Positions 3,914-33,840 of a DNA stretch of 64,000 bases are shown here, one piece after another. This DNA is from Minisyncoccota bacterium (GTDB lineage Bacteria; Patescibacteriota; Minisyncoccia; JAHIHE01; JAGLIN01), in NCBI GenBank assembly GCA_028690055.1, contig JAQVBZ010000001.1, positions 20,452-84,451 on the forward strand, in the 5' to 3' direction. The first letter of the stretch is position 1. Every line of letters starts with the position of its first letter. Below the pieces are notes generated by a model. The model did not search any database, had not been told where the DNA came from, and saw only the letters and a list, made by a program, of their open reading frames with translations. A program made the position numbers and the translations under genes.

Positions 3914-4882
3914 GTGTATATTATGTTTAAGAATAAATTTAAAACCAAGCCGATCATCGAGACGATTACCGTGGGTAGCTGTCTTAAGACCAAGCGGGAG
4001 GAACTGGGACTCTCTCTGCCGGACCTAAGCAGGGAACTCGGCATAAAGTACGAGTACCTGAAAAGTCTGGAGGAGGGCGATTATACCCAGCTGCCGCCAC
4101 AGGTTTATGTCCGCGGTTTCATCAAGAGCTATGCAAAACATCTCGACATTGATGCGTCGCAGCTCGTCAAAATTTACAACCGCGAGACGTCCTATCTTTT
4201 TGAGGAAGAGCGGGAGAGCAGACAGCGAAGCGCAAAGGCGAAAAAATCCGATTGGAAAGATTACCTGACTGTCACGCCGCGGATACTGACTGGTATTTTT
4301 AGCCTCTGCATCGTGACGGTTCTTGGATATTATTTTATGCATCAGATAAATTCTTTCAACTCCAAACCATATCTTTTTGTTGACAATCCTGTGGCGGATG
4401 GCGTGGTAAAAGAAAAAGACTTATGGGTTAGCGGCAAGACGGAAAATGACGCCATCTTGAAAATCAACGGACAGGAAATCAGTGTGAATGCGGAGGGTGT
4501 TTTTAGCCAGAAGATAGTACTTGCTGAAGGGAGAAATCTACTGGTGGTGGAAGCCAAAAATAGATTCAGCAAAACTGATAAAAAGGAAATCAATATAGTC
4601 TATGAAAAATCTGAAGAGGACAAACTGGTAGTTAAAGAGTCGGAAGCGGAAACTGTGGCGGAACCGATCAAGGAAATAAGCATTGTCGAGGAAAAGTCCG
4701 GTACTGTAGCTGGAGCAAAGACTCCGGTAGAGCCGGTCAAGAAAGAAATTGTCGTCAAGAAGGAACCCGATTCTGTCTTAGGGGCGAAAGCTTCCGCGGC
4801 GAGCATCGAAGAAGAAGTCGCAGTCAGTGGCAGCGAGGATGCGACAGTTCCGGTCGCAGATACGGAATCGGAAGGATTATGA
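3914..4882 (+). CDS. RodZ-like cytoskeleton protein (XRE-type HTH + single TM + extracytoplasmic region)
   Basis: N-terminus LGLSLPDLSRELGIKYEYLKSLEEGDYTQLPPQVYVRGFIKSYAKHLDID matches the RodZ HTH signature. A TM helix (LTGIFSLCIVTVLGYYF) follows. Alternative start at 3923. Confidence 0.6.
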   Translation: MYIMFKNKFKTKPIIETITVGSCLKTKREELGLSLPDLSRELGIKYEYLKSLEEGDYTQLPPQVYVRGFIKSYAKHLDIDASQLVKIYNRETSYLFEEERESRQRSAKAKKSDWKDYLTVTPRILTGIFSLCIVTVLGYYFMHQINSFNSKPYLFVDNPVADGVVKEKDLWVSGKTENDAILKINGQEISVNAEGVFSQKIVLAEGRNLLVVEAKNRFSKTDKKEINIVYEKSEEDKLVVKESEAETVAEPIKEISIVEEKSGTVAGAKTPVEPVKKEIVVKKEPDSVLGAKASAASIEEEVAVSGSEDATVPVADTESEGL

Positions 4883-6248: not shown

Positions 6249-9101
6249 ATGAAGAATCTAGCGGGGTTATCCTTAATTCTCTTATTGGTGTTAGTATGTT
6301 TGGCGCCGTCTTCTGTCTGTCGTGTGGCAAACGCCGGTACACTTATTACGGAGGAAAGATTTGAAAACAGTATCAGCTCTTACTGGTACAGGGCAATGAA
6401 TAATTATTCCTATTCCGGTACTTACATTACCTCTCCTTTTGTTTCGCCTACTCATGCTTTTCGTATCGAACTGCATAGCAGCGATTCAGAGGTGGAAGGA
6501 GGCATGCGTGCGGAGTTGGAAAGCGAACCGGAAACGCGGCTGCAGGAGCGCACTTACAATTTTAATATTATGCTTCCCGGCGGAGGGGCGGATGATTATG
6601 CGTTGGATAATTACGATTGCGATGAAATTATTGCTCAATGGCATAACAATCCCGATTCCGGGGAAGATTGGACCATGCCACCACTGGCCCTTACTACAAC
6701 TACAAACGAGAAGGGGGAGGGGCGCTATGTACTTCTGAATCTATGGGATGATGCTGCTAAGTCCACGACGGAAGAAATGAAATCGGAAGGCAAAATCAGT
6801 TATTACGATCTTGGTTCGTATACGGAGGATAAGGGTAAATGGGTTAAATGGACTTTTCATGTCAAATGGGGGTGGCTTTCTTCTCATAACACTATTTTGG
6901 AAGTATACAAGAACGGAAGTTTGATCTTTAGTCATAACGGATATCCCAACACCACTAACGATCAAAAGGGTGTGAATCAACAGTTTGGAGTTTATAAATG
7001 GGAATGGGATGGCAGCGGACCCGATTCCAAACTATCGAAGCGCGTAATCTATTTTGATGATGTTAGCGTATATCAGGGATGGGAGGCTCCCGGTTCCACT
7101 TCTAACCCTCCCGCTACCACTTACACCGTCACAGTAAATAACGGCCTAGGCGGAGGAACCTATTCGGCGGGAGAAGAGGTGACTATTGTAGCTAATCTGC
7201 CTGTTTCCGGCAAAGCTTTTGACAGGTGGACAGGAAGTACTCAATATCTTGATAGCATCACTTCATATACCAATACTTTCACCATGCCCGCATCAAACAT
7301 ATTCTTTACTGCAACCTATCAAAACATAGCCCCCGCCACCTACGACCTCACTGTCACCAAAGGCTCCGGTGACGGAGCATACACTACAGGCACGCAAGTG
7401 ACTATCACCGCCAACACTCCCGCTCCCGGCAAGGTATTCGACAAATGGACAGGCGGTACTTCTAGTATAGCCAGCACGACATCATCGACCACTACAGTCA
7501 CGATGCCATCTGCGGATATCACTTTAATTGCCAATTACAAAGATGCCCCCAAGTATACTCTGACAGTAGCAAACGGTACCGGCGACGGCTCATACGCCCA
7601 AGGCGCGGAAACAGTGATCACCGCCGACACTCCCGCCACCGGCAAAGTCTTCGACAAATGGACAGGCAGTACCACCTACATCTCTAGCACGATATCACCA
7701 ACCACTATCGTAACGATGCCAGCTTCATCCATTACCCTCACTGCCACTTACAGAGATTCCGATCTTCTTGATCCTTCTACCAGCTTCCTGATGATAGGCT
7801 ACGGCTCCGGTGACGGTGCTTACCCTGTGGGTACACAAGTTACCATCACCGCCAATGAACCTGCCAAGGGATTGGTCTTTGACAAATGGACAAGAGACAC
7901 TGAATACGTTTCAGACATATACAGCACGACACCTACAGTTACCATCCCCGATCACGGCATCATCCTTGTTGCTTCATACGAGAGATCCGATGATGAGACT
8001 TTCAGACTGGTAGTATCCGGTGGTACCGGAGGAGATGATTATCTCCCCGGCACAGAAGTCACCATCACCGCCGACACTCCCGATACCAACAAAGTCTTCG
8101 ATCAATGGGTGGGAGACATCAGCCATATCGATGATACCGGCAAAGCCATAGCTATCGTAACTATGCCTGAAGAAGACATTACTCTGGTTGCTACATACAA
8201 AACCATAAACCAAGGAGAATACCTGCTTACCGTAAGGAACGGCACCGGTAACGGTTCTTATCTTCCCGGCTCTGAAATCATTATCAAAGCCGACACTCCT
8301 CCTACCGGTAAGATCTTCAGCAGATGGACAGGCAACACCTCTTACATCAACGACATCGATTCAGCCACTGCCACCGTTACGATGCCGTCGCTATCTATCA
8401 CCTTGACTGCCACCTACAAAGACAAAAACAATAATGGCAATTACCCCGACGGTACTCTCATCAAGCTCCCGGATTCTCCCAAGATATATGTCATCACCAA
8501 TGGAGAAAAGAAATGGATATCTACCCCTGAACAATTCGAACAACTGGGATATCAATGGACAGAGGTACAGACTGTCACCGAAGAGATATTGAGTACTCTT
8601 GAAGACATCGAAGATAATCTGATCCGTCTCATAGGAGACTTCAAAATCTATCTGGTTACCAACGGTACCAAACGTCACATCCCCAACCCCGATGTCTTCC
8701 TTAACTACGGTTTCAATTGGAACGATGTCAAAGAAGTGGATGAATCGATTTTCAACAAATACAAAGATGTCTATCTCATCAGAGAGTCAGGCAAAGAATC
8801 CGTATACTACCTGACCCCCGCGGGCATCCGCAAGCACATCCCCACCACAGACATCTTCAACTCTTACGATGACAAATGGGAAGATGTCCAAATCATTTCT
8901 CAAAACGAGATGAATACTTATACTCTTTCCAATCTTGTCAGGTTGGAAGGAACAAATGACGTTTATCTTATCGAGGGCAATATCAAAAGACGTATCCCCG
9001 ATCCAACAATCTTCAATAAATACAAGTTTAATTGGGAATACGTTCTTTCTGTAAATCAAACAGAATTCAACTGGTACCAGAATGGGGGAGAGTTGAGGTG
9101 A
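6249..9101 (+). CDS. Secreted multidomain protein: signal peptide, concanavalin-like jelly-roll (polysaccharide-lyase/glucanase-like) domain, ~10 Listeria-Bacteroides (Flg_new/InlB-B-type) repeats, 4 C-terminal ~55-aa Trp-containing repeats
   Basis: Signal peptide MKNLAGLSLILLLVLVCLAPSSVCRVANA. The N-domain (res ~40-280) has the block ILEVYKNGSLIFSHNGYP...QQFGVYKWEW...VIYFDDVSV typical of jelly-roll lyases. Repeats of ~80 aa follow with consensus YTLTV.NG.G.GSY..G..VTI.A..P..GKVFDKWTG.T.Y.....S.T..VTMP...ITLTATYK. The C-terminus has 4 repeats with pattern IYLVTNG.KRHIP.P.VF..YGFNW..V. Confidence 0.8.
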   Translation: MKNLAGLSLILLLVLVCLAPSSVCRVANAGTLITEERFENSISSYWYRAMNNYSYSGTYITSPFVSPTHAFRIELHSSDSEVEGGMRAELESEPETRLQERTYNFNIMLPGGGADDYALDNYDCDEIIAQWHNNPDSGEDWTMPPLALTTTTNEKGEGRYVLLNLWDDAAKSTTEEMKSEGKISYYDLGSYTEDKGKWVKWTFHVKWGWLSSHNTILEVYKNGSLIFSHNGYPNTTNDQKGVNQQFGVYKWEWDGSGPDSKLSKRVIYFDDVSVYQGWEAPGSTSNPPATTYTVTVNNGLGGGTYSAGEEVTIVANLPVSGKAFDRWTGSTQYLDSITSYTNTFTMPASNIFFTATYQNIAPATYDLTVTKGSGDGAYTTGTQVTITANTPAPGKVFDKWTGGTSSIASTTSSTTTVTMPSADITLIANYKDAPKYTLTVANGTGDGSYAQGAETVITADTPATGKVFDKWTGSTTYISSTISPTTIVTMPASSITLTATYRDSDLLDPSTSFLMIGYGSGDGAYPVGTQVTITANEPAKGLVFDKWTRDTEYVSDIYSTTPTVTIPDHGIILVASYERSDDETFRLVVSGGTGGDDYLPGTEVTITADTPDTNKVFDQWVGDISHIDDTGKAIAIVTMPEEDITLVATYKTINQGEYLLTVRNGTGNGSYLPGSEIIIKADTPPTGKIFSRWTGNTSYINDIDSATATVTMPSLSITLTATYKDKNNNGNYPDGTLIKLPDSPKIYVITNGEKKWISTPEQFEQLGYQWTEVQTVTEEILSTLEDIEDNLIRLIGDFKIYLVTNGTKRHIPNPDVFLNYGFNWNDVKEVDESIFNKYKDVYLIRESGKESVYYLTPAGIRKHIPTTDIFNSYDDKWEDVQIISQNEMNTYTLSNLVRLEGTNDVYLIEGNIKRRIPDPTIFNKYKFNWEYVLSVNQTEFNWYQNGGELR

Positions 9102-9921: not shown

Positions 9922-10722
9922 TTATACAATAGTATCCTCCAGAATCGCATCAAGCTTATCTTCGAGCTCTTCCAATTTGATTTTGCTTTTCTTGCCTTTG
10001 CTTTCTTCTTTCTTCTCTTTACTCGGCGCCTTTTCAATCTTGCTTTCTTCTTTCTTCTCTTCTATCTTTGCCTCTTCAGACTTCAGCACCGATTCTTCCT
10101 CTTTCACTTCTTCTTTCTCCTTTTCCTCTTTCACTTCTTCAATTTCGAGTGTTGCTTCTTTCACTGCCACCTCTTCTTTTTTCTCTTCTTCTACCGTTTC
10201 CACAGCTGGCTCTACTGCTTTCACTTCTTCTTTCTTTTCGGCACCTGTTTCTTTCCTTGCAGTTTTACGGTCTTCTTTCCCTTTGCTGTTTTCAGCTTCT
10301 TCTCTTTCCTGCTCGGCTTTTTTGCGAGCAAAGAGTGTTTGCAGTCTCTCCCATTCTTCCTTAGTCATCGGGTCGGCTTCGAGGATGATGTGTCTGAGTA
10401 CGACTTTGCTGAGTCGCAAGTATTCGTCGATTTCTTCGATTTTCTTGCCCTCTGCTTCGAAATTGACGAGACAGTAGTAACCGAATCTTTCGTGCTTGAT
10501 CAAGTAAGCCAATTTTCTTTTCACGACCGGCAGAGCCTTGATTTCATCGGGTTCGTCTTCTTTGCTCATTCCGGCCTTGGTGAGGAACGGGTGTTCAAGC
10601 AAAGTCTCAAGCATCTTACCACCGAATTTTTCAATGTGCTTCTGCACATCTTGGAAATTCTTTACGATCTCTTCGCTGGTTTCTGACGCCGGAAGGATGT
10701 AAAGGAGTTCGTAATTTTTCAT
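9922..10722 (-). CDS. rpsF: 30S ribosomal protein S6 with ~150-aa Lys/Glu-rich low-complexity C-terminal tail
   Basis: N-terminus MKNYELLYIL...KRKLAYLIKHERFGYYCLVNFEA is S6-like. It lies upstream of ssb and rpsR on the same strand. The tail is EEKKEE-type repeats. Confidence 0.7.
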   Translation of the reverse strand: MKNYELLYILPASETSEEIVKNFQDVQKHIEKFGGKMLETLLEHPFLTKAGMSKEDEPDEIKALPVVKRKLAYLIKHERFGYYCLVNFEAEGKKIEEIDEYLRLSKVVLRHIILEADPMTKEEWERLQTLFARKKAEQEREEAENSKGKEDRKTARKETGAEKKEEVKAVEPAVETVEEEKKEEVAVKEATLEIEEVKEEKEKEEVKEEESVLKSEEAKIEEKKEESKIEKAPSKEKKEESKGKKSKIKLEELEDKLDAILEDTIV

Positions 10723-14493: not shown

Positions 14494-15696
14494 ATGCAAG
14501 CTGTAATTCTGGCTGCGGGAAAATCTACCCGCACCTATCCTCTCACTCTGACTAAGCCGAAGCCTCTTTTGAAGGTGGCAAACTTGACCATAGTCGAACG
14601 CAATCTAGAGCAATTGCGAGGCCTGGTTGACGAGGTGATCATGGTGGTAGGATATCAGTCGGACATGATCAAGGGGTTCTTAGGTGAAAATTATCGGGGC
14701 ATGAAGATAAGATATGTCTCGCAGGAAGAGACGTCCGGCACCGCCAGTGCTTTCAGTCTGACCAAGCAATATGTACAAGGCAAATTTATTCTTATGTTCG
14801 GCGATGACCTTTACAGTCGAGCGGATATTCGCAATCTTGCGAAATACAACAATGCCATCTTGGCGCAAAAGGTAGAGGACCCTTCCCGTTTCGGCGTGTT
14901 GAAAGTGGAAGGAGATAAATTTCTGGAAGTCATTGAGAAGCCGCAAGAATTCATTTCTGATCTGGTAAGTATAGGTTGCTTTATTTTTACTCCGGAAATC
15001 TTCAACGTTTTGGAAGATATCAAACTTTCCCAAAGAGGGGAATACGAGCTCACTGATGCTTATAATTTTTTAGCTCAAAAAGAGGAGATTAAGGTTGTTT
15101 CAGCTAAGGATTTCTGGCTTCCAATCACTTTTCCGTGGAGTCTATTGCGTGCGAATAGTTTTCTTCTGCAGAGAACCAAGACCGATATCAGCAAAAAATC
15201 CAAAGTAGAAAAAGGTGTTATTATTAAAGGGCAGGTGATTATCGGAGAGAAAACTGTCATTAAGTCCGGTGTATATATTGAAGGGCCAGTCGTAATCGGG
15301 GAAAAATGTGTAATCGGACCTAATGCTTATCTACGTGCAGGTACGACTATCGGGGACAACTGTCATATCGGTCAGGCGGTAGAAATCAAAAATTCCATTA
15401 TCGGTGACAATACCAATGTGGCGCATCTTTCTTATGTCGGTGATTCTGTCTTGGGTGATAATGTAAATTTCGGTGCCGGCACTATCACAGCCAATTTGCG
15501 TCACGATGACAAGAATATTAAATCATTGGTGGGTGATAAAGTGATGGATTCTGAGATGAAAAAAATGGGCGTGATCGTGGGTGATGGCTGCAAGACCGGA
15601 GTGCACACCTCTTTCTATCCCGGCGTCAAAATGGACCCGGGCACGACGACGTTGCCGGGAGATGTCGTGGTGAGGGATATAAAAAAAAGTGAATAG
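14494..15696 (+). CDS. Bifunctional sugar-1-phosphate nucleotidyltransferase / left-handed beta-helix acyltransferase (GlmU-like, archaeal-type)
   Basis: N-terminus AVILAAGKSTRTYPLTLTKPKPLL is an NTP-transferase fold. The C-terminal third has hexapeptide repeats (IGEKCVIGPNAYLRAGTTIGDNCHIGQAVEIKNSIIGDNTNV...). Confidence 0.8.
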   Translation: MQAVILAAGKSTRTYPLTLTKPKPLLKVANLTIVERNLEQLRGLVDEVIMVVGYQSDMIKGFLGENYRGMKIRYVSQEETSGTASAFSLTKQYVQGKFILMFGDDLYSRADIRNLAKYNNAILAQKVEDPSRFGVLKVEGDKFLEVIEKPQEFISDLVSIGCFIFTPEIFNVLEDIKLSQRGEYELTDAYNFLAQKEEIKVVSAKDFWLPITFPWSLLRANSFLLQRTKTDISKKSKVEKGVIIKGQVIIGEKTVIKSGVYIEGPVVIGEKCVIGPNAYLRAGTTIGDNCHIGQAVEIKNSIIGDNTNVAHLSYVGDSVLGDNVNFGAGTITANLRHDDKNIKSLVGDKVMDSEMKKMGVIVGDGCKTGVHTSFYPGVKMDPGTTTLPGDVVVRDIKKSE

Positions 15697-15931
15697 CATA
15701 AGCTCCTATTTTGTTATTTTGAATTGTAGGGGCTCAATATCTTGTGCTCTTGCGATTGTGAATCTGCTAATAACGCCATATGATATTAAGTTCTTTGTAA
15801 TATAACGTCGGTAGAGAATGAAATGTTTCCCATATTCCTCAATCGCTCCGCTCATTTCGGAATGACAAATAGAATCTGGTTTCTGACGATATATAATTTT
15901 GACGTTTATGTTTAAAAAGTAGTGCTCATCT

Positions 15932-16561
15932 ATGAAAATATATTTAGATTTTGACGATACTATCTTTGATACCCGCGCTTTTGCCGAAGATCTCAGCCGG
16001 ATTTTTGAGCGTGTAGGTTTCTCGGAAAAAGATTTTTTTGATAATTATGCCCTTGTTAGGGATAATCGGGGAGGGCTTGATCTCGATGCTCTTTTTAATC
16101 AGCTATCCCGCCAGAGAGAATTCGATATTCGCAAGACTAGGCGCAGTGTAGATAATCTTTTTGCCAACGTGGATGTTTTTGTTCACAACGATTTTTTCGA
16201 TTTCGCAAGGGGCTTTTCTAAAGAGGATTTGACACTGCTTTCTTACGGCCCGACGCTTTCCCAGCGAGAGAAGATTGAGAATTCCAAGGTTATCCCCTTT
16301 TTCAATGAAATTATTGTGACTTCCCGAAGCAAAGAGGAGAGTTTTCCGGACATACTCCGTAAATATCCGAGTGAAGAATTGTTTTTTGTGGATGACAAAG
16401 CTGACCAGATCGATCGCGTCAAGACGGTGGCTCCGTCCGTGGTAGTGATGAAGATGGAACGCCCGGGAGGACGGCATACGGGCATCAAATCCGAATTGGC
16501 GGATCATATCGTAAAAGATTTTTATGACGTGGCGGAGATTATAAAAGGCAAAAGTAAATAG
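15932..16561 (+). CDS. HAD-superfamily phosphatase-like hydrolase
   Basis: N-terminal MKIYLDFDDTIF (DxD motif I) and later FVDDKADQ (motif IV-like). Embedded in the sugar-activation cluster. Confidence 0.55.
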   Translation: MKIYLDFDDTIFDTRAFAEDLSRIFERVGFSEKDFFDNYALVRDNRGGLDLDALFNQLSRQREFDIRKTRRSVDNLFANVDVFVHNDFFDFARGFSKEDLTLLSYGPTLSQREKIENSKVIPFFNEIIVTSRSKEESFPDILRKYPSEELFFVDDKADQIDRVKTVAPSVVVMKMERPGGRHTGIKSELADHIVKDFYDVAEIIKGKSK

Positions 16562-16585
16562 TAGGGATATAGAATTTCGAATAGG

Positions 16586-16695
16586 TGTCATTCTGAGGTA
16601 CCCCCGAAGAATCCCAGTCTATCTCGCGTAGTGCAGTACCTTTTTTGATTGTCATCCCGAAAGGCGTACTCGATTGAGGAATCTGGGAAATATAG
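16586..16695 (+). repeat. Degenerate family-2 MITE fragments
   Basis: TGTCATTCTGAGG... and TTGTCATCCCGAAAGGCGTACTCGATTGAGGAATCTGGGAAATAT match the 5' arm of family 2. Confidence 0.5.
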
Positions 16696-16736
16696 AAGAC
16701 TCTATGAGTGATATTAATAAGAGCATTACTAGCTCA

Positions 16737-16774
16737 AGGGTACAAGATATTGTGCCCCTACAATTCGAAATTAC
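16737..16774 (+). repeat. Family-4 palindromic core AGGGYACAAGATATTGTGCCCCTACAA
   Basis: Same core occurs at 15724-15757 (rc), 37011-37037 (rc), 39164-39196 and 54490-54530. Confidence 0.7.
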
Positions 16775-16872
16775 AAAATGAACCTTTTATTGCATAGAGG
16801 AAGGCAAGGTGGTGATATATAATTTTACTATCCACATCAAATCAAATTAATTTACTATAAGCTGTAAAAAAT

Positions 16873-18237
16873 ATGGAGAAGATAAGTGAAGGGGTGTTCA
16901 AAGCTTATGATATCCGGGGCATCTATCCGAGCGAGATCGATGAAGATTTTGCTTACAAGTTAGGAAGGGGTTTTTCTACATTCGTGCTGGAAAAGAATCC
17001 TGCAGCCAAATCAGTTGTGCTTAGCAGCGATATGAGACTTTCTTCGCCGGCTCTGCGTGTCGAGGTGGAGCGAGGCATCCTTGATAGCGGACTCAACGTT
17101 ATCGATATCGGATTGGCGAGCACGCCGACTTTCTATTTTGCGGTCGCTTACTATGGCTACGACAGTGGTATCCAGGTTTCAGCTTCGCACAATCCCAAAG
17201 ATTACAACGGTTTCAAAATGGTGCTCGGAGGTGGTTTTCCGGTCAGCAAGAATTCCGGAATTATGCGCATTAAGGAGATAATGTTAAACGAAACTTTTGT
17301 GAATAAGGTTGAGCAAGGGACGATTTTTAAAGAGGAAAGCGTATTAGAAGACTTGGCAAATGAGCAGTTGGCCAACTTCGATATGAGCAGGATTCGGAAA
17401 TTCAAAATCGTTATAGACGCTTCCAATGCTATGGGGGCTTTGGATATGGAAGAATTTTTCAATCGTGTACCGGGTGATATCGTGAAGATGAATTTCACTC
17501 TGGATGGCAGCTTTCCTGTGCACGAGGCGGATCCGCTCAAAGAAGAGAATCTTGAAGCGCTACAAAAGGCGGTCGTGGAGAATGGAGCCGACTTCGGCAT
17601 CAGTATCGACGGTGATGCCGACCGATATTTCTTCGTGGATGAGAAGGGCGATTTGTTGCGGCAGGAAATCTTGCGTGGAATCATGGCGCAAATCGAACTC
17701 AAAAGAAGTCCCGGCGAGGTGGTTTGCTATGATATCCGTCCGGGCAGAATCACTCGAGATATGATCGAGGAGATGAAAGGAGATCCGATCGTGACTCCGG
17801 TCGGGCATTCACTCATAAAGGAAATTATGATTGAAAATGACGCGGTGTTCGGTGGCGAGTCATCCGGCCACTATTTTTACCGGGAGCATTACGGGACTTT
17901 CGAGATGCCATTCTTGTTGGTGTCGCGTTTCTTACAGTTTCTTTCCAGTGAAGATAAGACTTTTTCACAGATGATGGTGCCGTACAAAAAATACTTCCAC
18001 TCCGGTGAAATTAATCGCAAAGTTGCGGACTCGAAGGCTGTACTGGAAAAATTGAAAGAGAAGTACAAAGACGCTAGCCTTTCCGAGATCGATGGCATCA
18101 CGATTGAATACCCCGACTTCTGGTTTAATGTCCGGACTTCCAATACCGAGCCTCTGGTGCGTCTCAACTTGGAGTCGAAGAGTAGGGAACTGACCGATGA
18201 GAAAGTACGGGAAGTTTTAGAGGTGATTGAAGGATAA
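16873..18237 (+). CDS. Phosphomannomutase/phosphoglucomutase
   Basis: Active-site serine loop VSASHNPKDYNGFK, Mg loop SIDGDADR, sugar-binding GGESSGH. Confidence 0.9.
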   Translation: MEKISEGVFKAYDIRGIYPSEIDEDFAYKLGRGFSTFVLEKNPAAKSVVLSSDMRLSSPALRVEVERGILDSGLNVIDIGLASTPTFYFAVAYYGYDSGIQVSASHNPKDYNGFKMVLGGGFPVSKNSGIMRIKEIMLNETFVNKVEQGTIFKEESVLEDLANEQLANFDMSRIRKFKIVIDASNAMGALDMEEFFNRVPGDIVKMNFTLDGSFPVHEADPLKEENLEALQKAVVENGADFGISIDGDADRYFFVDEKGDLLRQEILRGIMAQIELKRSPGEVVCYDIRPGRITRDMIEEMKGDPIVTPVGHSLIKEIMIENDAVFGGESSGHYFYREHYGTFEMPFLLVSRFLQFLSSEDKTFSQMMVPYKKYFHSGEINRKVADSKAVLEKLKEKYKDASLSEIDGITIEYPDFWFNVRTSNTEPLVRLNLESKSRELTDEKVREVLEVIEG

Positions 18238-18263
18238 GGTTTTTCGTCTTTATAAAAAAATAA

Positions 18264-18294
18264 AAAGGGTTTCCGGTTGGAAATCCTTTTTTAG
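18264..18294. terminator. Rho-independent terminator (bidirectional) after the PMM/PGM gene
   Basis: AAAGGGTTTCC ggtt GGAAATCCTTTTTT. Confidence 0.6.
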
Positions 18295-18341
18295 TATAAA
18301 AATATTTTTTCTTTAGTGTCTTCTTTCTTTTTTGTTTAGAA

Positions 18342-18563
18342 TTAACCTTGCAGGCCTATAGCATTCATGGCTGCCCACATATTTATGTCGTTCTCTGCAT
18401 CTTTAAGAATTTGCTTAATCCTTTTTTTATCAGTGACGCCCCGTAGCCTTTTCTCTGTTGTTTTCCGAAGCTCATCGTTTCGAATGTCAGAAAGTTTTCT
18501 TATTTTTTCTCTTCCGTCTTCGTCGTTTGCTGTTTCAAATTCCGCATTACTTAATGTTGTCAT
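18342..18563 (-). CDS. Hypothetical 73-aa protein
   Basis: Start chosen at the internal Met preceded by GGAGGG (9 nt spacer). The ORF-track start at 18596 lacks an RBS. No recognised domain. Confidence 0.4.
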   Translation of the reverse strand: MTTLSNAEFETANDEDGREKIRKLSDIRNDELRKTTEKRLRGVTDKKRIKQILKDAENDINMWAAMNAIGLQG

Positions 18564-18875
18564 TTTTGTTTTACCCTCCTCTTCAATGGATGACAATCGT
18601 CATACTTTATCATACGATTGCAAACCTACTTCTCATTATAGTACTGCAATAATTATGTGTCAATCGTCAAAAGATGCCCCTAATAAGCCAAAAAATGTAA
18701 CATGCTGGGAAGTAAAATATTGATTTTGACGAGTTTTTGTATATAAATGGGGCGAAAAATTTTGTCTGATTTGCATTCTTTTAAACTTGTGCTAGGCTAT
18801 AAGTATGACAAGTTATGACGAAGTGTGAAAAGTTATGAAAAACTATCATGCGTTCTTATTTTTAAATCATATAAT

Positions 18876-19670
18876 ATGAACCGTTCTCGAGTCACTATTA
18901 CTATTCGTACCGATTTGCTGCGCAGTGTCGATGCGCTTATAGATGGTACCAAGATCAAGAATCGGTCGCATGCCATCGAGTCGCTCTTAAGCAAGGATTT
19001 TTCCAACCGCACCATACGCAAGGCGGTGATTCTTTCAGGCGGCAAAGGAATTAAGATTAAAGGACATAAAGAGGAGGTTTCGCGCGTCCTTTCTCCTTAT
19101 CGGGGAAAGTTATTTATCGAACATACCTTCGATTGGTTGCGAGCTCAGGGCATAGAAGAAGTAATTATTTCCGCCAGTGCGCTTTCCTCGGGTATCAAAG
19201 AAGAAATCGGTGACGGCAAGAAATTCGGACTCAGTGTTTCCTACTTGGCCAAGGACGAGGGGACGGCAAGCGTGCTTAAATATCTGGTAAATCTGGTGGA
19301 TGAGACTTTCTTGATGATCAACGGCGATGTCCTTTCGGAGGCGGATTTGGGTGAGATGTTTGAATTTCACAAGAAGTGCGGAGGCGCCTGTACTGTGGGC
19401 ATGATCTCGGTTAAGGAGCCTGCGGCTTATGGTAATATCGTGCTTTCCGGTAATCAGATTGTTGATTTTATTGAGAAGCCCAAAGCAGGCAAAGAGGAAT
19501 CATACCTGGTGAACGCCGGTGTGTATCTGATGGAGCCGGATATTTTTAATCTGGTTTCTCCGCAATGTGTCAGTTTGGAACGGGACCTTTTTCCTACACT
19601 AGCTAAGCGCGGCGTCCTATGCGGGTATTATTTACAGGGGGAGTGGATCAGTCTGGATAGTGCCAGGTAA
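18876..19670 (+). CDS. Ribbon-helix-helix (CopG/NikR-like) domain fused to a sugar-phosphate nucleotidyltransferase
   Basis: Residues 1-45 MNRSRVTITIRTDLLRSVDALIDGTKIKNRSHAIESLL form an RHH. They continue without stop or Met into KAVILSGGKGIKIKG...LFIEHTFDWLRAQGIEEVII (NTP_transferase fold). ATG at 18876; the ORF-track start at 18825 is less likely. Confidence 0.7.
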   Translation: MNRSRVTITIRTDLLRSVDALIDGTKIKNRSHAIESLLSKDFSNRTIRKAVILSGGKGIKIKGHKEEVSRVLSPYRGKLFIEHTFDWLRAQGIEEVIISASALSSGIKEEIGDGKKFGLSVSYLAKDEGTASVLKYLVNLVDETFLMINGDVLSEADLGEMFEFHKKCGGACTVGMISVKEPAAYGNIVLSGNQIVDFIEKPKAGKEESYLVNAGVYLMEPDIFNLVSPQCVSLERDLFPTLAKRGVLCGYYLQGEWISLDSAR

Positions 19671-19942
19671 TAATTTGGCACAGACTGGATTCCCGTCGGA
19701 GTTTATCCTTGTGCAAGCAAGGGGGGGATGACGATATGATACCAAATCAACTTAATCTGTGACATAATGATTTCACTTTTATTCCCCCTTACCCCGACCC
19801 TCTCCCGGCAGGAGAGGGAGAATTCCAAATGCTATATGACTGGACTGTAGAACAGCTTAAGCTAATTTGATATTAGATATTAATACAACGCAGGAAGGGG
19901 TGACAAGTAGTTTCGATATAATTTATTTAATAATTTCAGGAG

Positions 19943-21010
19943 ATGAAATTCCTAATCATGGCGGGAGGTAAAGGCACACGTTTGTGGCCGGTGTCTCGTG
20001 TGGAAAAGCCAAAACAATTCCAGAAACTGGTCAGCGAGCAGACGATGCTGCAGGAAACGGTACAACGTCTTTTGCCGCGGTTTCCTGTGAGTGATATCTA
20101 TGTGGCGACCAATAAGATCTATGCCGAGGAGGTACATTGCGAACTTCCCGAATTGCCAAAAAAAAATATCATTGCGGAGCCGTCTTTTCGGGAAAGGGCC
20201 TCGGCGGTGGCGCTTTCGTGCGCGTTATTGGGGCAAGAGTGGGACGATGATCTCGTAATCCTCCCCTCTGATCATCTCATAGAAGACAAAGAGGCTTTTT
20301 GGCAAGCGCTGGAGGAGGCTGAGAAATTCATATCTCGACACAGCGATGCCTTGCTCACTATCGGTATCAAGCCGACTGGGCCTGAAACCGGCTACGGTTA
20401 TCTCAAGTGCGAGGAAAAGCAGATAAAGTCCGGCAAGCTCGATCTTTACAAGGTGGAAAGTTTTTTTGAAAAGCCGGATATGGACAGCGTGCAAAAATAT
20501 CTGGATAGCGGGTGCCTGTGGAATTCGGGGATATACGTCTGTCGTATTTCTGCTATTATGGAACGTTTTGCCAGGTTCATTCCCGATACTTATCTGAGAC
20601 TCAAGCGTATTCAAAAGGCGGCAGGAACGAGCAAGCTGGAAAAAACTATCGCCAAGGAATATCCGCTGATGGACATGGTATCTTTCGAATACGGTATTTT
20701 GGAAAACGACGACAAAGCGTATGTCATCGCCGCCAATTTTATCTGGAGTGACGTCGGCAGCTGGTCGGCGCTCAAGGATTCTCTCCTGTCCGGCAACAGC
20801 AATAACTTGATTAAGGGCGAACATCTGGACATCGGCTCGAAGAATATTATGGTTTACGGCTCGAAAAAACTGATTGCCACTGTCGGATTGAAGGACATTG
20901 TTATCGTGGATACGGAGGATGCTATACTGGTCTGTGATAAGAAAAACACACAGTTGGTGCGTGACTTGGTGGGCAAATTGGAAAAAGAGAAGAAGATAAA
21001 GCTTCTGTAG
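19943..21010 (+). CDS. Mannose-1-phosphate guanylyltransferase-like nucleotidyltransferase (no cupin domain)
   Basis: MKFLIMAGGKGTRLWPVSRVEKPKQF...GIKPTGPETGYGYLKC...GCLWNSGIYV is ManC-like. Confidence 0.75.
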   Translation: MKFLIMAGGKGTRLWPVSRVEKPKQFQKLVSEQTMLQETVQRLLPRFPVSDIYVATNKIYAEEVHCELPELPKKNIIAEPSFRERASAVALSCALLGQEWDDDLVILPSDHLIEDKEAFWQALEEAEKFISRHSDALLTIGIKPTGPETGYGYLKCEEKQIKSGKLDLYKVESFFEKPDMDSVQKYLDSGCLWNSGIYVCRISAIMERFARFIPDTYLRLKRIQKAAGTSKLEKTIAKEYPLMDMVSFEYGILENDDKAYVIAANFIWSDVGSWSALKDSLLSGNSNNLIKGEHLDIGSKNIMVYGSKKLIATVGLKDIVIVDTEDAILVCDKKNTQLVRDLVGKLEKEKKIKLL

Positions 21011-21042
21011 ATAAGAATTATTAATCAGTTACATCAAAAATT

Positions 21043-22431
21043 ATGATCGGAATAATACTTTGCGGCGGATCAGGCAAGCGTCTCTGGCCGTTGTCGCGCA
21101 CAAATTTCCCAAAACAATTCCTGAGACTCTATTCCGACAGATCTTTGCTGCAGGAAACTTTTTTGCGCATACAAAAGGTCATGTCGGCGGACCATATTTA
21201 TCTGGTCACTAATCAAGCGAACTATTATAATGTATTCAATCAGATCCGCGAAGTGTATCCGCTGATCAAGAAGGATCAGATTATCATCGAACCGATATCG
21301 CTCAATACCGCACCCGCGATATTGCTGGCGGTGAAATATCTTTCTGACCGGACCAAGATAGACGAGAAAGAGCCTCTGATATTCTTGCCGGCTGATCATT
21401 ATATCGGTCAATCGGAAAAGTTCGCCGAGACAGTAAAGCTGGCGCTGGAAAATGTCGGCGATAATGTGGGCACGCTTGGCATCGCGCCGACCGGGCCGGA
21501 AACGGGATTCGGTTATATTGAAAAAGGAGAGCCGCAAGGAGCTTATCATCTGGTCAAGTCATTCAAAGAAAAGCCTGACCGCGCCACAGCGGAAAAATAT
21601 CTCGAATCGGGACAGTATGTCTGGAATGGCGGCATATATTTTTTTAGTACCGAAACATTCCTCGGAGAAATCAAGAGTCATGCACCGCAGCTTTTCGAGC
21701 ATTTTGAAAAAACATATGAAGAATTTTTGGAAGGATTCGGACAATTGAAGGAGGAACCTATCGATACCGCACTTTCGGAGAAATCCGATAAAGTAATCGT
21801 TTTTGACGGTGATTTTGATTGGAGTGATATCGGATCATTCGATGCACTTGCGGAAATTGCCGAAAAAAACAATCTGCTTGAACCGAAACATATATTTATG
21901 GATTCGAATAATGTGTTTGCTCATTCCGAATCGGACAAGACGATTGCGACTTTGGGTGTCGACGATGTGATTATCATCGAGAGCAACGACGTGGTGTTCG
22001 TGCAGAAACGGGGAGAAAGCGAAGGTGTTAAAAAAGTGGTGGCCTATTTGAAGGAGAATAAACGCAAGGAGGCTGAGCATAATGTTATCGTGTATCGTCC
22101 TTGGGGGAAATATGAAGTACTTATTGATAGCGATAGCCATAAGGTAAAGAAAATAACCGTTTTTCCGGGTGCGTCCCTCAGCTTGCAATCGCACGAACAT
22201 CGCAGCGAGCATTGGGTGGTGGTCAAAGGAACTGCGACGGTCGTTAATGGTGAAAACCTGTTGACTCTCCGTGAAAATGAAAGTACGTATATTCTGGCTA
22301 AATCCCTACATCGGCTTTCCAATTCCGAGAAGGAAAATCTGGAAATCATCGAAGTACAGACCGGGGACTATCTGGGGGAAGACGATATCGTGCGCTACGA
22401 GGATGTTTACGGCAGACAGGACGGAGTATAA
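21043..22431 (+). CDS. Mannose-1-phosphate guanylyltransferase / mannose-6-phosphate isomerase (type II PMI, C-terminal cupin)
   Basis: MIGIILCGGSGKRLWPLSRTNFPKQF, GIAPTGPETGFGYIE, C-terminal cupin PWGKYEVL...SLQSHEHRSEHWVVVKGTATV. Confidence 0.85.
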   Translation: MIGIILCGGSGKRLWPLSRTNFPKQFLRLYSDRSLLQETFLRIQKVMSADHIYLVTNQANYYNVFNQIREVYPLIKKDQIIIEPISLNTAPAILLAVKYLSDRTKIDEKEPLIFLPADHYIGQSEKFAETVKLALENVGDNVGTLGIAPTGPETGFGYIEKGEPQGAYHLVKSFKEKPDRATAEKYLESGQYVWNGGIYFFSTETFLGEIKSHAPQLFEHFEKTYEEFLEGFGQLKEEPIDTALSEKSDKVIVFDGDFDWSDIGSFDALAEIAEKNNLLEPKHIFMDSNNVFAHSESDKTIATLGVDDVIIIESNDVVFVQKRGESEGVKKVVAYLKENKRKEAEHNVIVYRPWGKYEVLIDSDSHKVKKITVFPGASLSLQSHEHRSEHWVVVKGTATVVNGENLLTLRENESTYILAKSLHRLSNSEKENLEIIEVQTGDYLGEDDIVRYEDVYGRQDGV

Positions 22432-31374: not shown

Positions 31375-33840
31375 ATGAAAAAAAACCTGTTCGCGGTGGC
31401 GGTAATGGCCGGTGTCGGTCTGTTCGCTCTCTGTTCTCCGGTCTCGGCTTCAATTTCCGAATGTGACTACTCGAAAACTTATGACGATGTCAAGACTCTT
31501 TATGTCGCTCGCGATGGCAGCGGAGATTACAATTGTGACGGTACTGATGATGAAGTGGAAATCAACGCAGCTTTTCAGGCGGTTAAAAATAGCGGCGGAG
31601 CGTATGACTCTGTTTTTTTGAAATCCGGAACTTACATTGTCGGTACCAAAATCAATATGGTGACCAATTCGGTTTTTGAGGGGGACAAGGATGCAATTCT
31701 CAAACTGAAAGATCAGGCAGACTGGGAGGTTAATGTGCCGATGATCGGCTCTACAGATATACATACTGACAATGTAGAAATAAAATGTTTCGAGGCGGAT
31801 ATGAATTATGATGGTAACTATTCAACCGATGCTTATAGCTGCCTGGCGGGCTGGGGTGATGAATGCGTTGCGGGCGATTTTACCTGCTGTGAGGCTTACA
31901 GTACTTTCCGCACCACAGGCAAGGGATACTACAACGTGGCCGGTTTCACTTACGGAAAAAATTACTCGATGCACGATATGTATCTGCACGATGGATTGGG
32001 AGACGGACTTAATATTTTGCATAGTAGCAGTGTAAAATTTTATGACAATTTGATTTACAAGATGGGGCACGAAGGATTGTACGTGAAATATTCGGATATT
32101 GCCGAAGCATTCGGTAATGTGATTACCAATCGTACCAATTCGGGTCTGCGCGCGGATGATACCAATCATGTTTCTTTCCATGATAATGACATCACAGCTT
32201 TTGATCATTGGAGCGCCGGGGGGCCGGGCATCGAAATCGTTAAAGATGACAGGTTCGTGACTCAGATGAATGATATCCAGATTTACAACAATTATATCCA
32301 CGGCACTTACGGTCCTGGTATCTGGATTATTGCCAGTGGCACTAATCATACTGCGGCGGATCTTGCAGCAAATATCCATCACAATATTTTCTCTGGAACG
32401 GGTATCAATCCTACCATCAATTGGACGGCGGGGATTCTGACTTCCGGTTTCTATAACCTTACGGTAGAGAATAATGTTTTTGATAAAGTTTATAATGGTA
32501 CCTTACTTGTGTCGAATGCAATTGCGACACCTCCTGCCTCGTCAGGGTATGTGATAACTTTTCGCAATAATACCATTACCGGTACTCAGCCCCAGCGCAA
32601 CACCACGAGTAACGGTTATGGTATTATCAATCTGCTTTCCGGCACACACACGGTGAATTCCGAGAATAATTGTTTCTATGATAATTATGCGGGAGATTAT
32701 TACGGTAACGTGAACAGTGTGGATGATATTCATACCGATCCGCTTTATGCCGACGCTGCTGATCAAGATTACCACCTGCAGTCTGCCTGGGGCAGATGGA
32801 ATGGTTCATCTTGGGTGAAAGACGCGGAGACTTCTCCTTGCATCGATGCGGGATACGCTGCTTCCGATTATTCTCTTGAACCTGAATCCAACGGTGGCAG
32901 GATAAATATCGGCCGCTACGGCAACACCGTCGAAGCCAGTCTTTCTTTCACACCTGTTTTAATCCCTGTGGCTACGACCTACGACCTTACGATAAATGGA
33001 GGATCCGGTTCCGGTTCATATGTGGAAGGTCAAAACGTAGTTATTATCGCTGATGCTTCAGCTACAGGCAAAGTATTTGACAAATGGATAGGCGACACGA
33101 CTTATGTTTCAAATGCAACTGCTGCTATCGCTAATGTGACAATGCCGGCAGACGGCGTCTCTCTGACTGCAACTTATAAAGATGTTTATTACAATCTTAC
33201 TGTTGATGGTGGTACCGGTTCAGGATCGTATATTTACGGCCAGCAAATCAGTGTTACTGCTGATGCTCCGAGTGCCGGAAAATTATTCGACAAATGGACG
33301 GGAGATATTTCTTATATCACCAGCGCCATTTCAGCCGCTACCACTGTGACGATGCCGACAGGCGCCGCCTTTCTTACCGCGACTTACAAGGATGCTCCGG
33401 TTACGACCTACGACCTTACGGTCAGTGGCGGTTCGGGCTCCGGGTCTTATGTTTCAGGAACCAAAGTGACCATTACGGCTGCTACTATTACGGGCAAAGT
33501 GTTTGTCGGATGGATAGGAAGCACTTCTTATCTTTCCAGTACCACTGCTGCGACCGCTACGGTGATTATGCCGGCTAAGGCGATTACGTTGACCGCCACC
33601 TACAAAACGGCTTACTACCTCACTATTTACAACGGTTCCGGTTCCGGATGGTACGCTGCCGGTACTAAGGTGACTATCGCTGCCAATGCTCCGGCAGTGA
33701 GGCAAGTTTTCTATAGATGGACAGGCAGCACCAGCTACGTGGCGAGGATCACTTCCGCCACCACTACGGTTACTATGCCGAGTAAATCCATCTCTCTTAC
33801 TGCGACTTATAGTACTTCAAGGTCTTGGTATTATAGATAA
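31375..33840 (+). CDS. Secreted right-handed parallel beta-helix (pectate-lyase-fold) protein with 5 C-terminal Listeria-Bacteroides (Flg_new-type) repeats
   Basis: Signal peptide MKKNLFAVAVMAGVGLFALCSPVSA. beta-Helix coils with N/H/D-rich PbH1 repeats (LHDGLGDGLNILHSSSVKFYDNLIY..., VSFHDNDITAF, IHHNIFSG). It ends with the typical DYHLQS...SPCIDAG. Five repeats follow: YDLTINGGSGSGSYVEGQNVVIIADASATGKVFDKWIGDTTYVSN...VTMP...LTATYKD. Confidence 0.8.
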   Translation: MKKNLFAVAVMAGVGLFALCSPVSASISECDYSKTYDDVKTLYVARDGSGDYNCDGTDDEVEINAAFQAVKNSGGAYDSVFLKSGTYIVGTKINMVTNSVFEGDKDAILKLKDQADWEVNVPMIGSTDIHTDNVEIKCFEADMNYDGNYSTDAYSCLAGWGDECVAGDFTCCEAYSTFRTTGKGYYNVAGFTYGKNYSMHDMYLHDGLGDGLNILHSSSVKFYDNLIYKMGHEGLYVKYSDIAEAFGNVITNRTNSGLRADDTNHVSFHDNDITAFDHWSAGGPGIEIVKDDRFVTQMNDIQIYNNYIHGTYGPGIWIIASGTNHTAADLAANIHHNIFSGTGINPTINWTAGILTSGFYNLTVENNVFDKVYNGTLLVSNAIATPPASSGYVITFRNNTITGTQPQRNTTSNGYGIINLLSGTHTVNSENNCFYDNYAGDYYGNVNSVDDIHTDPLYADAADQDYHLQSAWGRWNGSSWVKDAETSPCIDAGYAASDYSLEPESNGGRINIGRYGNTVEASLSFTPVLIPVATTYDLTINGGSGSGSYVEGQNVVIIADASATGKVFDKWIGDTTYVSNATAAIANVTMPADGVSLTATYKDVYYNLTVDGGTGSGSYIYGQQISVTADAPSAGKLFDKWTGDISYITSAISAATTVTMPTGAAFLTATYKDAPVTTYDLTVSGGSGSGSYVSGTKVTITAATITGKVFVGWIGSTSYLSSTTAATATVIMPAKAITLTATYKTAYYLTIYNGSGSGWYAAGTKVTIAANAPAVRQVFYRWTGSTSYVARITSATTTVTMPSKSISLTATYSTSRSWYYR

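Follow-up and report, generated by a model that had tools for sequence, protein, structure and literature searches.

What does a cell gain from a sugar-1-phosphate nucleotidyltransferase that carries a DNA-binding domain at its N terminus, and is such a protein an enzyme, a regulator, or both? The question is raised by a fusion gene in a Minisyncoccota bacterium, found in a stretch of 64,000 nt that was analysed as a whole (the window; contig JAQVBZ010000001.1 of assembly GCA_028690055.1, positions 20,452 to 84,451, forward strand), in which a ribbon-helix-helix (RHH) domain runs into a nucleotidyltransferase-like body. Patescibacteria (the candidate phyla radiation, CPR) and DPANN archaea manage with very small genomes in which few regulators can be recognised, and the majority are unculturable; to our knowledge, gene regulation in both groups is nearly uncharted. 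The answer favored here, with a probability of roughly 0.7, is that the fusion is an autoregulatory one-component transcription factor, in which a NikR-type RHH head is joined to a GDP-mannose-pyrophosphorylase-like body that would sense sugar nucleotides.

The fusion gene is an open reading frame (ORF) with neither a stop codon nor a methionine between residue 1 and M147; there is thus no internal start across the junction, and both halves belong to one reading frame, the RHH head (residues ~3-43) being joined in frame to a nucleotidyltransferase fold (residues 49-264). A Pfam scan of the 264-aa protein assigns NTP_transferase (PF00483) to residues 49-227 (E 4e-24). Relatives were sought in 5.8 billion protein clusters, and the 144 that were found are nearly all 260-285 aa long and align over 97-100% of the query at 34-90% identity; they belong to Pacebacteria, Andersenbacteria, Berkelbacteria, Uhrbacteria, Kerfeldbacteria, and Doudnabacteria among the Patescibacteria and to DPANN archaea. 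A scan of one genome per species, which adds Altiarchaeota, Nanoarchaeota, Aenigmatarchaeota, and Saccharibacteria to the carriers, finds full-length relatives in at least 561 genomes. The initial annotation had read the gene as an in-frame fusion rather than two neighboring genes and had called for a search of related genomes, and the 144 full-length clusters and at least 561 species genomes bear that reading out. It had also not recognised the architecture as a described one. No account of an RHH + NTP_transferase regulator was found in a literature search of incomplete journal coverage, and a candidate review mentions only toxin-antitoxin RHH/MNT modules; the architecture is, however, widespread rather than unique. 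The identical protein is deposited as MDD3005979.1, on 4 contigs in several archives, under the name "sugar phosphate nucleotidyltransferase"; public annotation describes the enzyme only and misses the RHH. Fusion genes that look like those of DPANN or CPR also stand on contigs labelled Aminicenantes, Methanosarcinales, or Gammaproteobacteria (loci L013, L060, L069, and L070); mis-binning or horizontal transfer may account for them.

The RHH is the best-conserved part of the protein (mean pairwise identity 60% vs. 44% for the enzyme body), with the signature R-x-T-I-T-L-x3-L-L-x3-D-x3-D-G-x3-[RK]-N-R-S-H-A-I-E; the signature residues, including D23-G24 and N29-R30-S31, are invariant in the family, and the ribbon and helix-cap residues are essentially so in all of the classes described below. 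The RHH_1 model of Pfam is matched individually by 17 of 25 diverse homologues (best E 3.4e-06). A head-only profile, built from the N-terminal 46 residues of 54 sequences, aligns with E. coli NikR across the entire RHH domain (E 6.8e-07), and further matches are CopG (E 0.004) and Pyrococcus horikoshii NikR (E 0.015). In the profile alignment, R5, T7, and T9 of the family lie opposite R3, T5, and T7 of NikR, an R-x-T-x-T strand common to both; in the NikR-DNA structure these are the DNA-reading residues. An AlphaFold2 monomer model (pLDDT 87.5, pTM 0.80) places an extended segment at residues 4-10 and helices at 12-19 and 30-43 in the head (pLDDT ~91), i.e., the strand-helix-helix order of an RHH with its conserved turn and helix-2 N-cap, and a Rossmann-like α/β domain after it. 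By these profiles and this model, the head is an RHH of the NikR/CopG type, an assignment that is secure at the level of the family and that agrees with the initial annotation. An exhaustive RHH-only search for other fusion partners of the head recovered members of the fusion family, RHHs that stand alone or are fragments, and the shortened class D proteins described below; a word-indexed profile search gave nothing but short proteins and fragments. Two proteins, P0322 (353 aa, no Pfam domain) and P0272 (318 aa), carry the same RHH type internally, at residues 87-129 and 43-79, respectively, and may be other architectures or have mis-called starts.

An inverted-repeat operator had been expected between 18600 and 18875; this region instead holds two arrays of 10-bp-phased direct GTATGA boxes, the putative operators O1 and O2 (Table 1), and the several weak inverted pairs listed there are not conserved. 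The four O1 boxes read GTATGA, TTATGA, GTGTGA, and TTATGA and lie 38-73 nt upstream of the ATG, where a repeat search reports a direct repeat at 18801-18838. O2 is the only perfect GTATGA-N4-GTATGA in the window. At one mismatch or fewer, the window holds two phased pairs, at 18803-18818 (+) and 18600-18615 (-), and no others (shuffles average 0.72); both sit in the single 280-bp intergenic region upstream of the fusion gene. The closest genome (locus L058; 82% protein identity, same synteny) keeps all four O1 boxes and has a TCATAT pair at O2.

The same word recurs across the family in a comparison of 80 genome loci (785 kb in all); the upstream counts refer to 79 loci. In an unbiased count over the 150 nt upstream of the orthologues, GTATGA/TCATAC is the top-enriched hexamer; 53 of the 79 loci contain GTATGA there, whereas the remaining 150-nt windows contain it in 5.6% of cases (P 4e-47). 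Measured against the other intergenic upstream regions of the same loci, at least one box is found in 53/79 vs. 35/369 (9.5%; Fisher 6e-26) and at least two in 28/79 vs. 11/369 (Fisher 3e-15). Neighboring boxes are direct at 10 bp (41 cases) or 20 bp (9), inverted at 11 bp (10), or everted at 9 bp (8); the consensus is wGTATGAyAAaGTATGAyaa, and the median distance between proximal box and start codon is 33 nt. Phased clusters number 64 in the 785 kb, 51 of them within 300 nt upstream of the fusion gene. The operator of E. coli NikR is GTATGA-N16-TCATAC (PMC7055735); GTATGA is the half-site hexamer of that protein, and the fusion family carries the same reading residues.

From the layout of the intergenic region we infer a promoter for the fusion gene that ends just before the first O1 box; it was read by eye, and a consensus scanner did not report it. 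Its counterpart in L058 reads TTTGCA...TGaTAAGCT, giving the common form TTTGCA-N17-TGnTA[GA]GCT, which ends 4 nt before box 1 in both. Both the -35 and the -10 elements of the divergent promoter near O2 are conserved in L058 as well.

In the mechanism proposed here, RHH dimers would read the GTATGA boxes through the R5/T7/T9 β-ribbon; in RHH proteins, which are obligate dimers, such an antiparallel ribbon of two strands enters the major groove. With boxes spaced by one helical turn (10 bp), neighboring dimers would line up along the same face of the DNA, linked by oligomerization of the enzyme-like bodies. At O1 four boxes would be bound, beginning at the predicted -10/transcription start of the fusion gene; at O2 two boxes would be bound just downstream of the strong divergent promoter. 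The expected outcome is self-repression, together with repression of the downstream ManC genes through read-through or shared control. DNA affinity would be set by occupancy of the retained sugar-phosphate pocket, for which the likeliest ligand is GDP-mannose, acting as a co-repressor; mannose-1-phosphate, acting as an inducer, is the alternative. Either ligand would give feedback control of nucleotide-sugar supply, exerted on the regulator gene and on the linked GDP-mannose genes. Across the family, 64 of 75 loci have the following gene on the same strand, where it usually overlaps or lies at most 40 nt away. It is most frequently a phosphomanno/phosphoglucomutase (26/64) or an NTP-transferase (17/64, 13 of the ManC type); rarer neighbors include a ROK kinase, phosphofructokinase, fructose bisphosphatase, phosphoglycerate kinase, glyceraldehyde-3-phosphate dehydrogenase, and PfkB. 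The earlier proposal of a metabolite-linked autoregulator of the surrounding sugar-nucleotide genes thus gains support from the conserved upstream boxes and from a conserved operon context of phosphomannomutase (PMM) and ManC.

Whether the body is enzyme or sensor turns on its residues. Its solved relatives closest by sequence are GDP-mannose pyrophosphorylases (7whr, human GMPPB 7d72, and Arabidopsis VTC1 7x8j), and the top Foldseek matches are VTC1 and GMPPB (E 2e-20, TM 0.68-0.73), with GMPPA also among the neighbors; together with PF00483, these matches identify a Rossmann-like GT-A catalytic-domain fold. All 37 NCBIfam matches, many of them to sugar-1-phosphate nucleotidyltransferases, fall far under their cut-offs (the best, the mannose-1-phosphate guanylyltransferase model NF052502, scores 110.7 bits vs. 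a 440-bit cut-off), so that no curated family claims the protein. In VTC1 the pyrophosphate (PPi)-binding loop comprises Gly9, Thr12, Arg13, and Lys23, the residues described as "catalytically critical" are Asp111, Glu195-Lys196, and Asp219, and the sugar/base contacts include Gly85, Gly146, and Asn173 (PMC9168903). When these roles are mapped by direct alignment, the fusion protein keeps G56, D151, E235, G129, G186, N213, E200-K201, and W257, and the sugar pocket is retained; the changes are T12 to I59, R13 to K60, K23 to R70, K196 to R236, and D219 to S259. Its PPi loop reads GGKGIKIKGHKEEVSR, P-x-T is absent, the base loop is shorter, and the PPi signature G-x-G-T-R-x(2-3)-P-x-T...P-K, found in all 49 members of class A, is missing.

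The 197 distinct sequences of the family were divided into three classes by this loop. In class A (n = 49, mostly archaeal) all catalytic residues are invariant; in class B (n = 48, CPR) the loop is kept and the catalytic Arg is replaced, mostly by Lys. In class C (n = 100, Paceibacterota, including the fusion protein studied here) the PPi-loop positions vary freely: the R13 equivalent is K (33), E (9), V (8), R (6), or another residue, the T12 equivalent is V or I, P-x-T has disappeared, and the base loop is shorter by 2-3 residues. The D219 equivalent in this class is H (44), D (22), or S (20), and the sugar pocket and RHH residues are essentially invariant. The exhaustive RHH-only search added class D, ~25 representatives of 200-225 aa that have an intact RHH but have undergone deletion of four enzyme elements: PPi loop, GD aspartate, E-K-P hairpin, and W-x-D motif. 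With the RHH kept in every class and the enzyme motifs lost in some, the constant element of the family is the DNA-binding head.

This loss goes together with the presence of another enzyme. A separate ManC-type gene lies within 6 kb in 13 of 13 class C loci vs. 2 of 67 others (Fisher 3e-13), while class A loci have PMM in 28 of 40 and ManC in none. The body thus appears to decay stepwise where another enzyme takes over. The classes would form an enzyme-to-sensor series: class A, an intact enzyme in a PMM operon and therefore probably a bifunctional enzyme-regulator; class B, with the Arg replaced; class C, in which PPi-loop and metal-site residues are lost and a separate ManC would catalyze; and class D, with the motifs deleted. 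The fusion protein, like class C generally, is probably no longer catalytic and would serve as a sensor, in which case its enzyme half senses sugar-nucleotide synthesis and does not perform it. The initial annotation had the RHH coupling sugar-nucleotide synthesis to transcription; the regulatory link in that claim is supported, whereas the fused domain is probably not the enzyme that carries out the synthesis.

Several observations weigh against an autoregulatory repressor with a sensor body, and the alternatives draw on some of them. Three concern the locus and family as a whole. No exact box lies within 150 nt at 26 of the 79 loci. The spacer between the fusion gene and ManC (19671-19942) is 272 nt long here, vs. 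12-30 nt in L001-L004 and L058, and contains a GC-rich hairpin (CCCTCTCC-cggc-aGGAGAGGG, 19799-19820), which makes co-transcription of the two genes uncertain at this locus. Class D has lost the sugar pocket along with the catalytic motifs, so that in some lineages the body may be an oligomerization scaffold only.

The competitor that survives best, unlikely though we judge it, is that the fusion protein still has sugar-1-phosphate nucleotidyltransferase activity in addition to being a repressor, i.e., that it is a bifunctional trigger enzyme like PutA, BirA, NadR, or RbkR, in which catalysis would be coupled to DNA binding. Its fold is intact, D151, E200-K201, E235, N213, G186, and W257 are retained, and the Arg and Lys of the PPi loop are replaced conservatively, by K60 and R70, so that some catalysis may persist; moreover, class A seems competent and heads PMM operons with no other pyrophosphorylase nearby, and bifunctionality is therefore likely to be ancestral. 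The class C pattern points the other way, with free variation in the PPi loop, H or S in place of D219 in most members, a missing P-x-T, a shortened base loop, and an intact ManC adjoining every locus, and class D demonstrates that complete loss of the catalytic motifs is tolerated in the lineage.

A second alternative, slightly less probable than the first, is that, in archaeal lineages at least, the protein activates the GDP-mannose genes rather than repressing them. Woesearchaeota-type loci have two boxes at fixed positions, -60 and -50, directly upstream of the TATA box (~-31). A site at that place is typical for archaeal activators that recruit TFB/TBP; the arrangement is compatible with activation, and the sign of regulation may therefore differ between lineages. 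Elsewhere the positions speak for repression. In bacterial loci with a recognisable σ70-like promoter, the present one included, the boxes overlap the -10, lie between the -35 and the -10, or follow within about 25 nt downstream; those of Altiarchaeota and several DPANN loci are downstream of the TATA box, and in L081 and L082 an inverted box pair overlaps the start codon. We infer from these positions, all of which would be repressor geometries, that repression is the more usual sign; characterised RHH regulators are mostly repressors, too.

It is far less probable that the RHH is a mere dimerization or structural extension that does not bind DNA, with the GTATGA boxes serving as a promoter element or being bound by another factor. 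For the fusion protein alone, the RHH_1 score over residues 5-38 is 15.5 bits, short of the 20.5-bit gathering cut-off, and the Pfam scan called for by the initial annotation thus recovered the enzyme domain without the head; GTATGAT resembles the -10 hexamer, as TATGAT; and extra domains oligomerize some nucleotidyltransferases, e.g., the left-handed β-helix (LbH) domain of VTC1 (PMC9168903). However, the RHH is the best-conserved part of the protein, with R/T/T and N-R-S-H-A invariant even where the enzyme motifs are gone. The boxes, for their part, are specific to the region upstream of the fusion gene, occur also in archaea, which lack -10 elements, and equal the half-site of NikR, whose reading residues are identical. 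The comparison with other intergenic regions, the boxes in archaea, and the 10-bp phasing together make a generic promoter element less likely. That two neighboring genes were merged by a misassembly or a frameshift deserves next to no credence, because at least 561 species-level genomes encode the same full-length architecture, which is continuous in 144 independent clusters from many studies at 34-90% identity, and because the identical protein recurs on 4 contigs in several archives.

Table 1. Coordinates, within the window, of the fusion gene, its candidate control sites, and neighboring genes.
Feature	Position	Strand	Remarks
GlmU-like enzyme	14494-15696		With hexapeptide domain
Phosphomannomutase/phosphoglucomutase	16873..18237	+	454 aa; PGM_PMM I-IV; pathway partner upstream
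Orphan small ORF, coding status uncertain	18342..18596	-	84 aa, or 73 aa from ATG 18563; downstream of O2
Operator O2 (putative)	18600..18615	-	Two perfect boxes; TCATACTTTATCATAC on +, i.e., GTATGATAAAGTATGA on -; faces divergent unit
Divergent promoter	18635..18663	-	Perfect TTGACA-17-TATAAT (12/12 σ70 consensus); upstream of O2; points away from fusion gene
Putative fusion-gene promoter	18770..18798	+	TTTGCA-N17-(TGc)TAGGCT, extended -10; ends 4 nt before box 1
Operator O1 (putative)	18803..18838	+	Four boxes, direct repeat; starts 18803, 18813, 18823, 18833
RHH + nucleotidyltransferase-like fusion gene	18876..19670	+	ATG start; 264 aa
RHH domain	18876..19016	+	Residues 1-47; β strand R5-T7-T9; helix-2 cap N29-R30-S31-H32-A33
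Sugar-1-phosphate nucleotidyltransferase-like domain	19020..19667	+	Residues 49-264; PF00483; probably non-catalytic ligand sensor
ManC-type mannose-1-phosphate guanylyltransferase	19943..21010	+	355 aa, intact; NTP_transferase + ManC_GMP_beta-helix; TIGR01479 E 7.8e-84
Bifunctional ManC/mannose-6-phosphate isomerase	21043..22431	+	462 aa; TIGR01479 453 bits, above 373-bit cut-off; Pfam domains

The neighborhood of the fusion gene is rich in its own fold: four NTP_transferase-fold paralogues (the GlmU-like enzyme, the RHH fusion, the short ManC, and the bifunctional ManC/mannose-6-phosphate isomerase) lie within 8 kb, at 14494-22431, although the genome is small. Between the GlmU-like gene and PMM is an unannotated 209-aa ORF (15932-16561), syntenic with a 216-aa ORF in L058. 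A riboswitch or other structured RNA in the spacer before ManC was considered and rejected (no Rfam match; fold z-score -0.9); Rfam finds three tRNAs in the 64-kb window and nothing else.

On the divergent side, the orphan ORF has no Pfam or NCBIfam match, no homologue in the 80 loci, and only identical copies in the database, nor is it homologous to its positional counterpart in L058; a conserved partner protein was therefore rejected, although the ORF is a possible second target of the regulator. The divergent transcript may instead be a non-coding RNA or run antisense to PMM at its 3' end. The class D locus L081 has the gene order RHH-pseudoenzyme, ManC, PMM, ROK, with the putative operator on the start codon. 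There and in L082, also of class D, the inverted pair (3940-4003 and 230-276, respectively) comes right after an rpsT terminator and ends on the start codon; the TATGAT of its first box stands where the -10 of a leaderless mRNA would sit, so that the operator word may double as a -10.

Further from the fusion gene, the window encodes two very large predicted surface proteins with divergent InlB B-repeats (6249-9101 and 31375-33840), one of 950 aa with a polysaccharide-lyase domain and the other of 821 aa with disaggregatase-related and β-helix domains; they may be host- or matrix-interaction proteins. A 266-aa ORF on the minus strand (9922-10722) matches ribosomal protein S6 at residues 68-114 only and is far longer than a normal S6, being either an extended S6 or an ORF with a mis-called start.

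Under the reading of the fusion as a sugar-nucleotide-sensing autoregulator, the locus offers a concrete pair of regulator and operator that is open to test, the RHH head and its 10-bp-phased GTATGA boxes, together with a defined target pathway, from hexose phosphate to GDP-mannose. GDP-mannose feeds cell-surface glycans, which are likely to be relevant to a host-attached lifestyle. Hundreds of database entries named "sugar phosphate nucleotidyltransferase" would probably be transcription factors, a systematic annotation error, and the family would form a natural series for the evolution of an enzyme into a sensor, in which loss of catalysis can be tracked by gain of a neighboring replacement enzyme. 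The comparison also suggests that the R-T-T/GTATGA recognition code is portable, both from the sensor domain of NikR to a different one and across the transcription machineries of bacteria and archaea. A bolder version, to which we give clearly less than even odds, is that the family is a cross-domain transcription factor of CPR and DPANN/Altiarchaeota, with an invariant head and GTATGA on both promoter types; that it is the principal regulator of GDP-mannose supply in such ultra-small organisms with few regulators; that every step from enzyme to sensor is preserved in it; and that NikR is a sister lineage that swapped the sensor domain, a possibility raised by the recognition code common to both.

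Among known systems, NikR is the nearest in its DNA-binding part. The fusion protein shares with it the N-terminal RHH subtype, the R-x-T-x-T strand, the N-R-S helix-2 cap, and the GTATGA half-site, as well as, in the proposed mechanism, a C-terminal ligand domain that governs DNA affinity and oligomeric state. It is not a NikR, because residues 49-264 give no match to NikR_C (the ACT-like, nickel-binding tetramerization domain with its His/Cys metal ligands) and only the head and the half-site are in common. Where NikR has a small ACT-like nickel-binding domain, the fusion has a nucleotidyltransferase fold of ~215 aa; the NikR half-sites are inverted and 16 bp (two turns) apart, whereas the boxes of the fusion family are mostly direct at 10 bp, which implies a different quaternary geometry.

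PutA (RHH + proline dehydrogenase/pyrroline-5-carboxylate dehydrogenase) is the classic trigger enzyme, a large active flavoenzyme switched by redox state and membrane association. Like PutA, the fusion combines an RHH with a metabolic enzyme in one chain and would autoregulate the genes of its own pathway; unlike PutA, its body is small, has another fold, and is probably inactive in class C. NadR contains nicotinamide mononucleotide adenylyltransferase. NadR, BirA, and RbkR resemble the family, and probably class A above all, in fusing a DNA-binding domain to an enzyme that consumes or synthesizes the effector nucleotide, but their heads are helix-turn-helix (HTH) or winged HTH, their enzyme folds are unrelated, and none of them controls nucleotide-sugar synthesis. 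The term "trigger enzyme" has been set out with examples, and RbkR, an archaeal riboflavin kinase/regulator, was found by comparative genomics (PMC5397151). Two marks of such enzymes are present in the fusion family, namely a DNA-binding domain and an enzyme-type domain in a single polypeptide, and a conserved putative operator before its own gene or the operon of the enzyme-domain pathway (PMM, ManC, and ROK).

NrtR, a winged HTH protein with a Nudix-derived effector domain, was recognised through comparative genomics of operators and regulons (PMC2330246). It is alike in having an enzyme-derived effector, annotated in databases as an enzyme, fused to a DNA-binding domain; it differs in the folds of head and body, in its pathway (NAD), and in its taxonomic range. 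The repressors MetJ, Arc, CopG, and omega line up several RHH dimers along one face of the DNA, over short repeats in tandem. Tandem short boxes with helical-turn spacing are common to these regulators and the fusion family; they are, however, small single-domain proteins, or take a small co-repressor at the RHH (S-adenosylmethionine in MetJ), and have no enzyme-like sensor domain. For the body, GMPPA provides a precedent for a pseudo-pyrophosphorylase sensor, since it belongs to the same enzyme family and is a non-catalytic paralogue that has lost catalysis, binds GDP-mannose, and feeds back on GDP-mannose synthesis by GMPPB (PMC11228364, PMC9168903). GMPPA is eukaryotic and acts allosterically on GMPPB through LbH contacts, whereas in the fusion protein, which has no LbH domain, the feedback would be transcriptional and would pass through the RHH.

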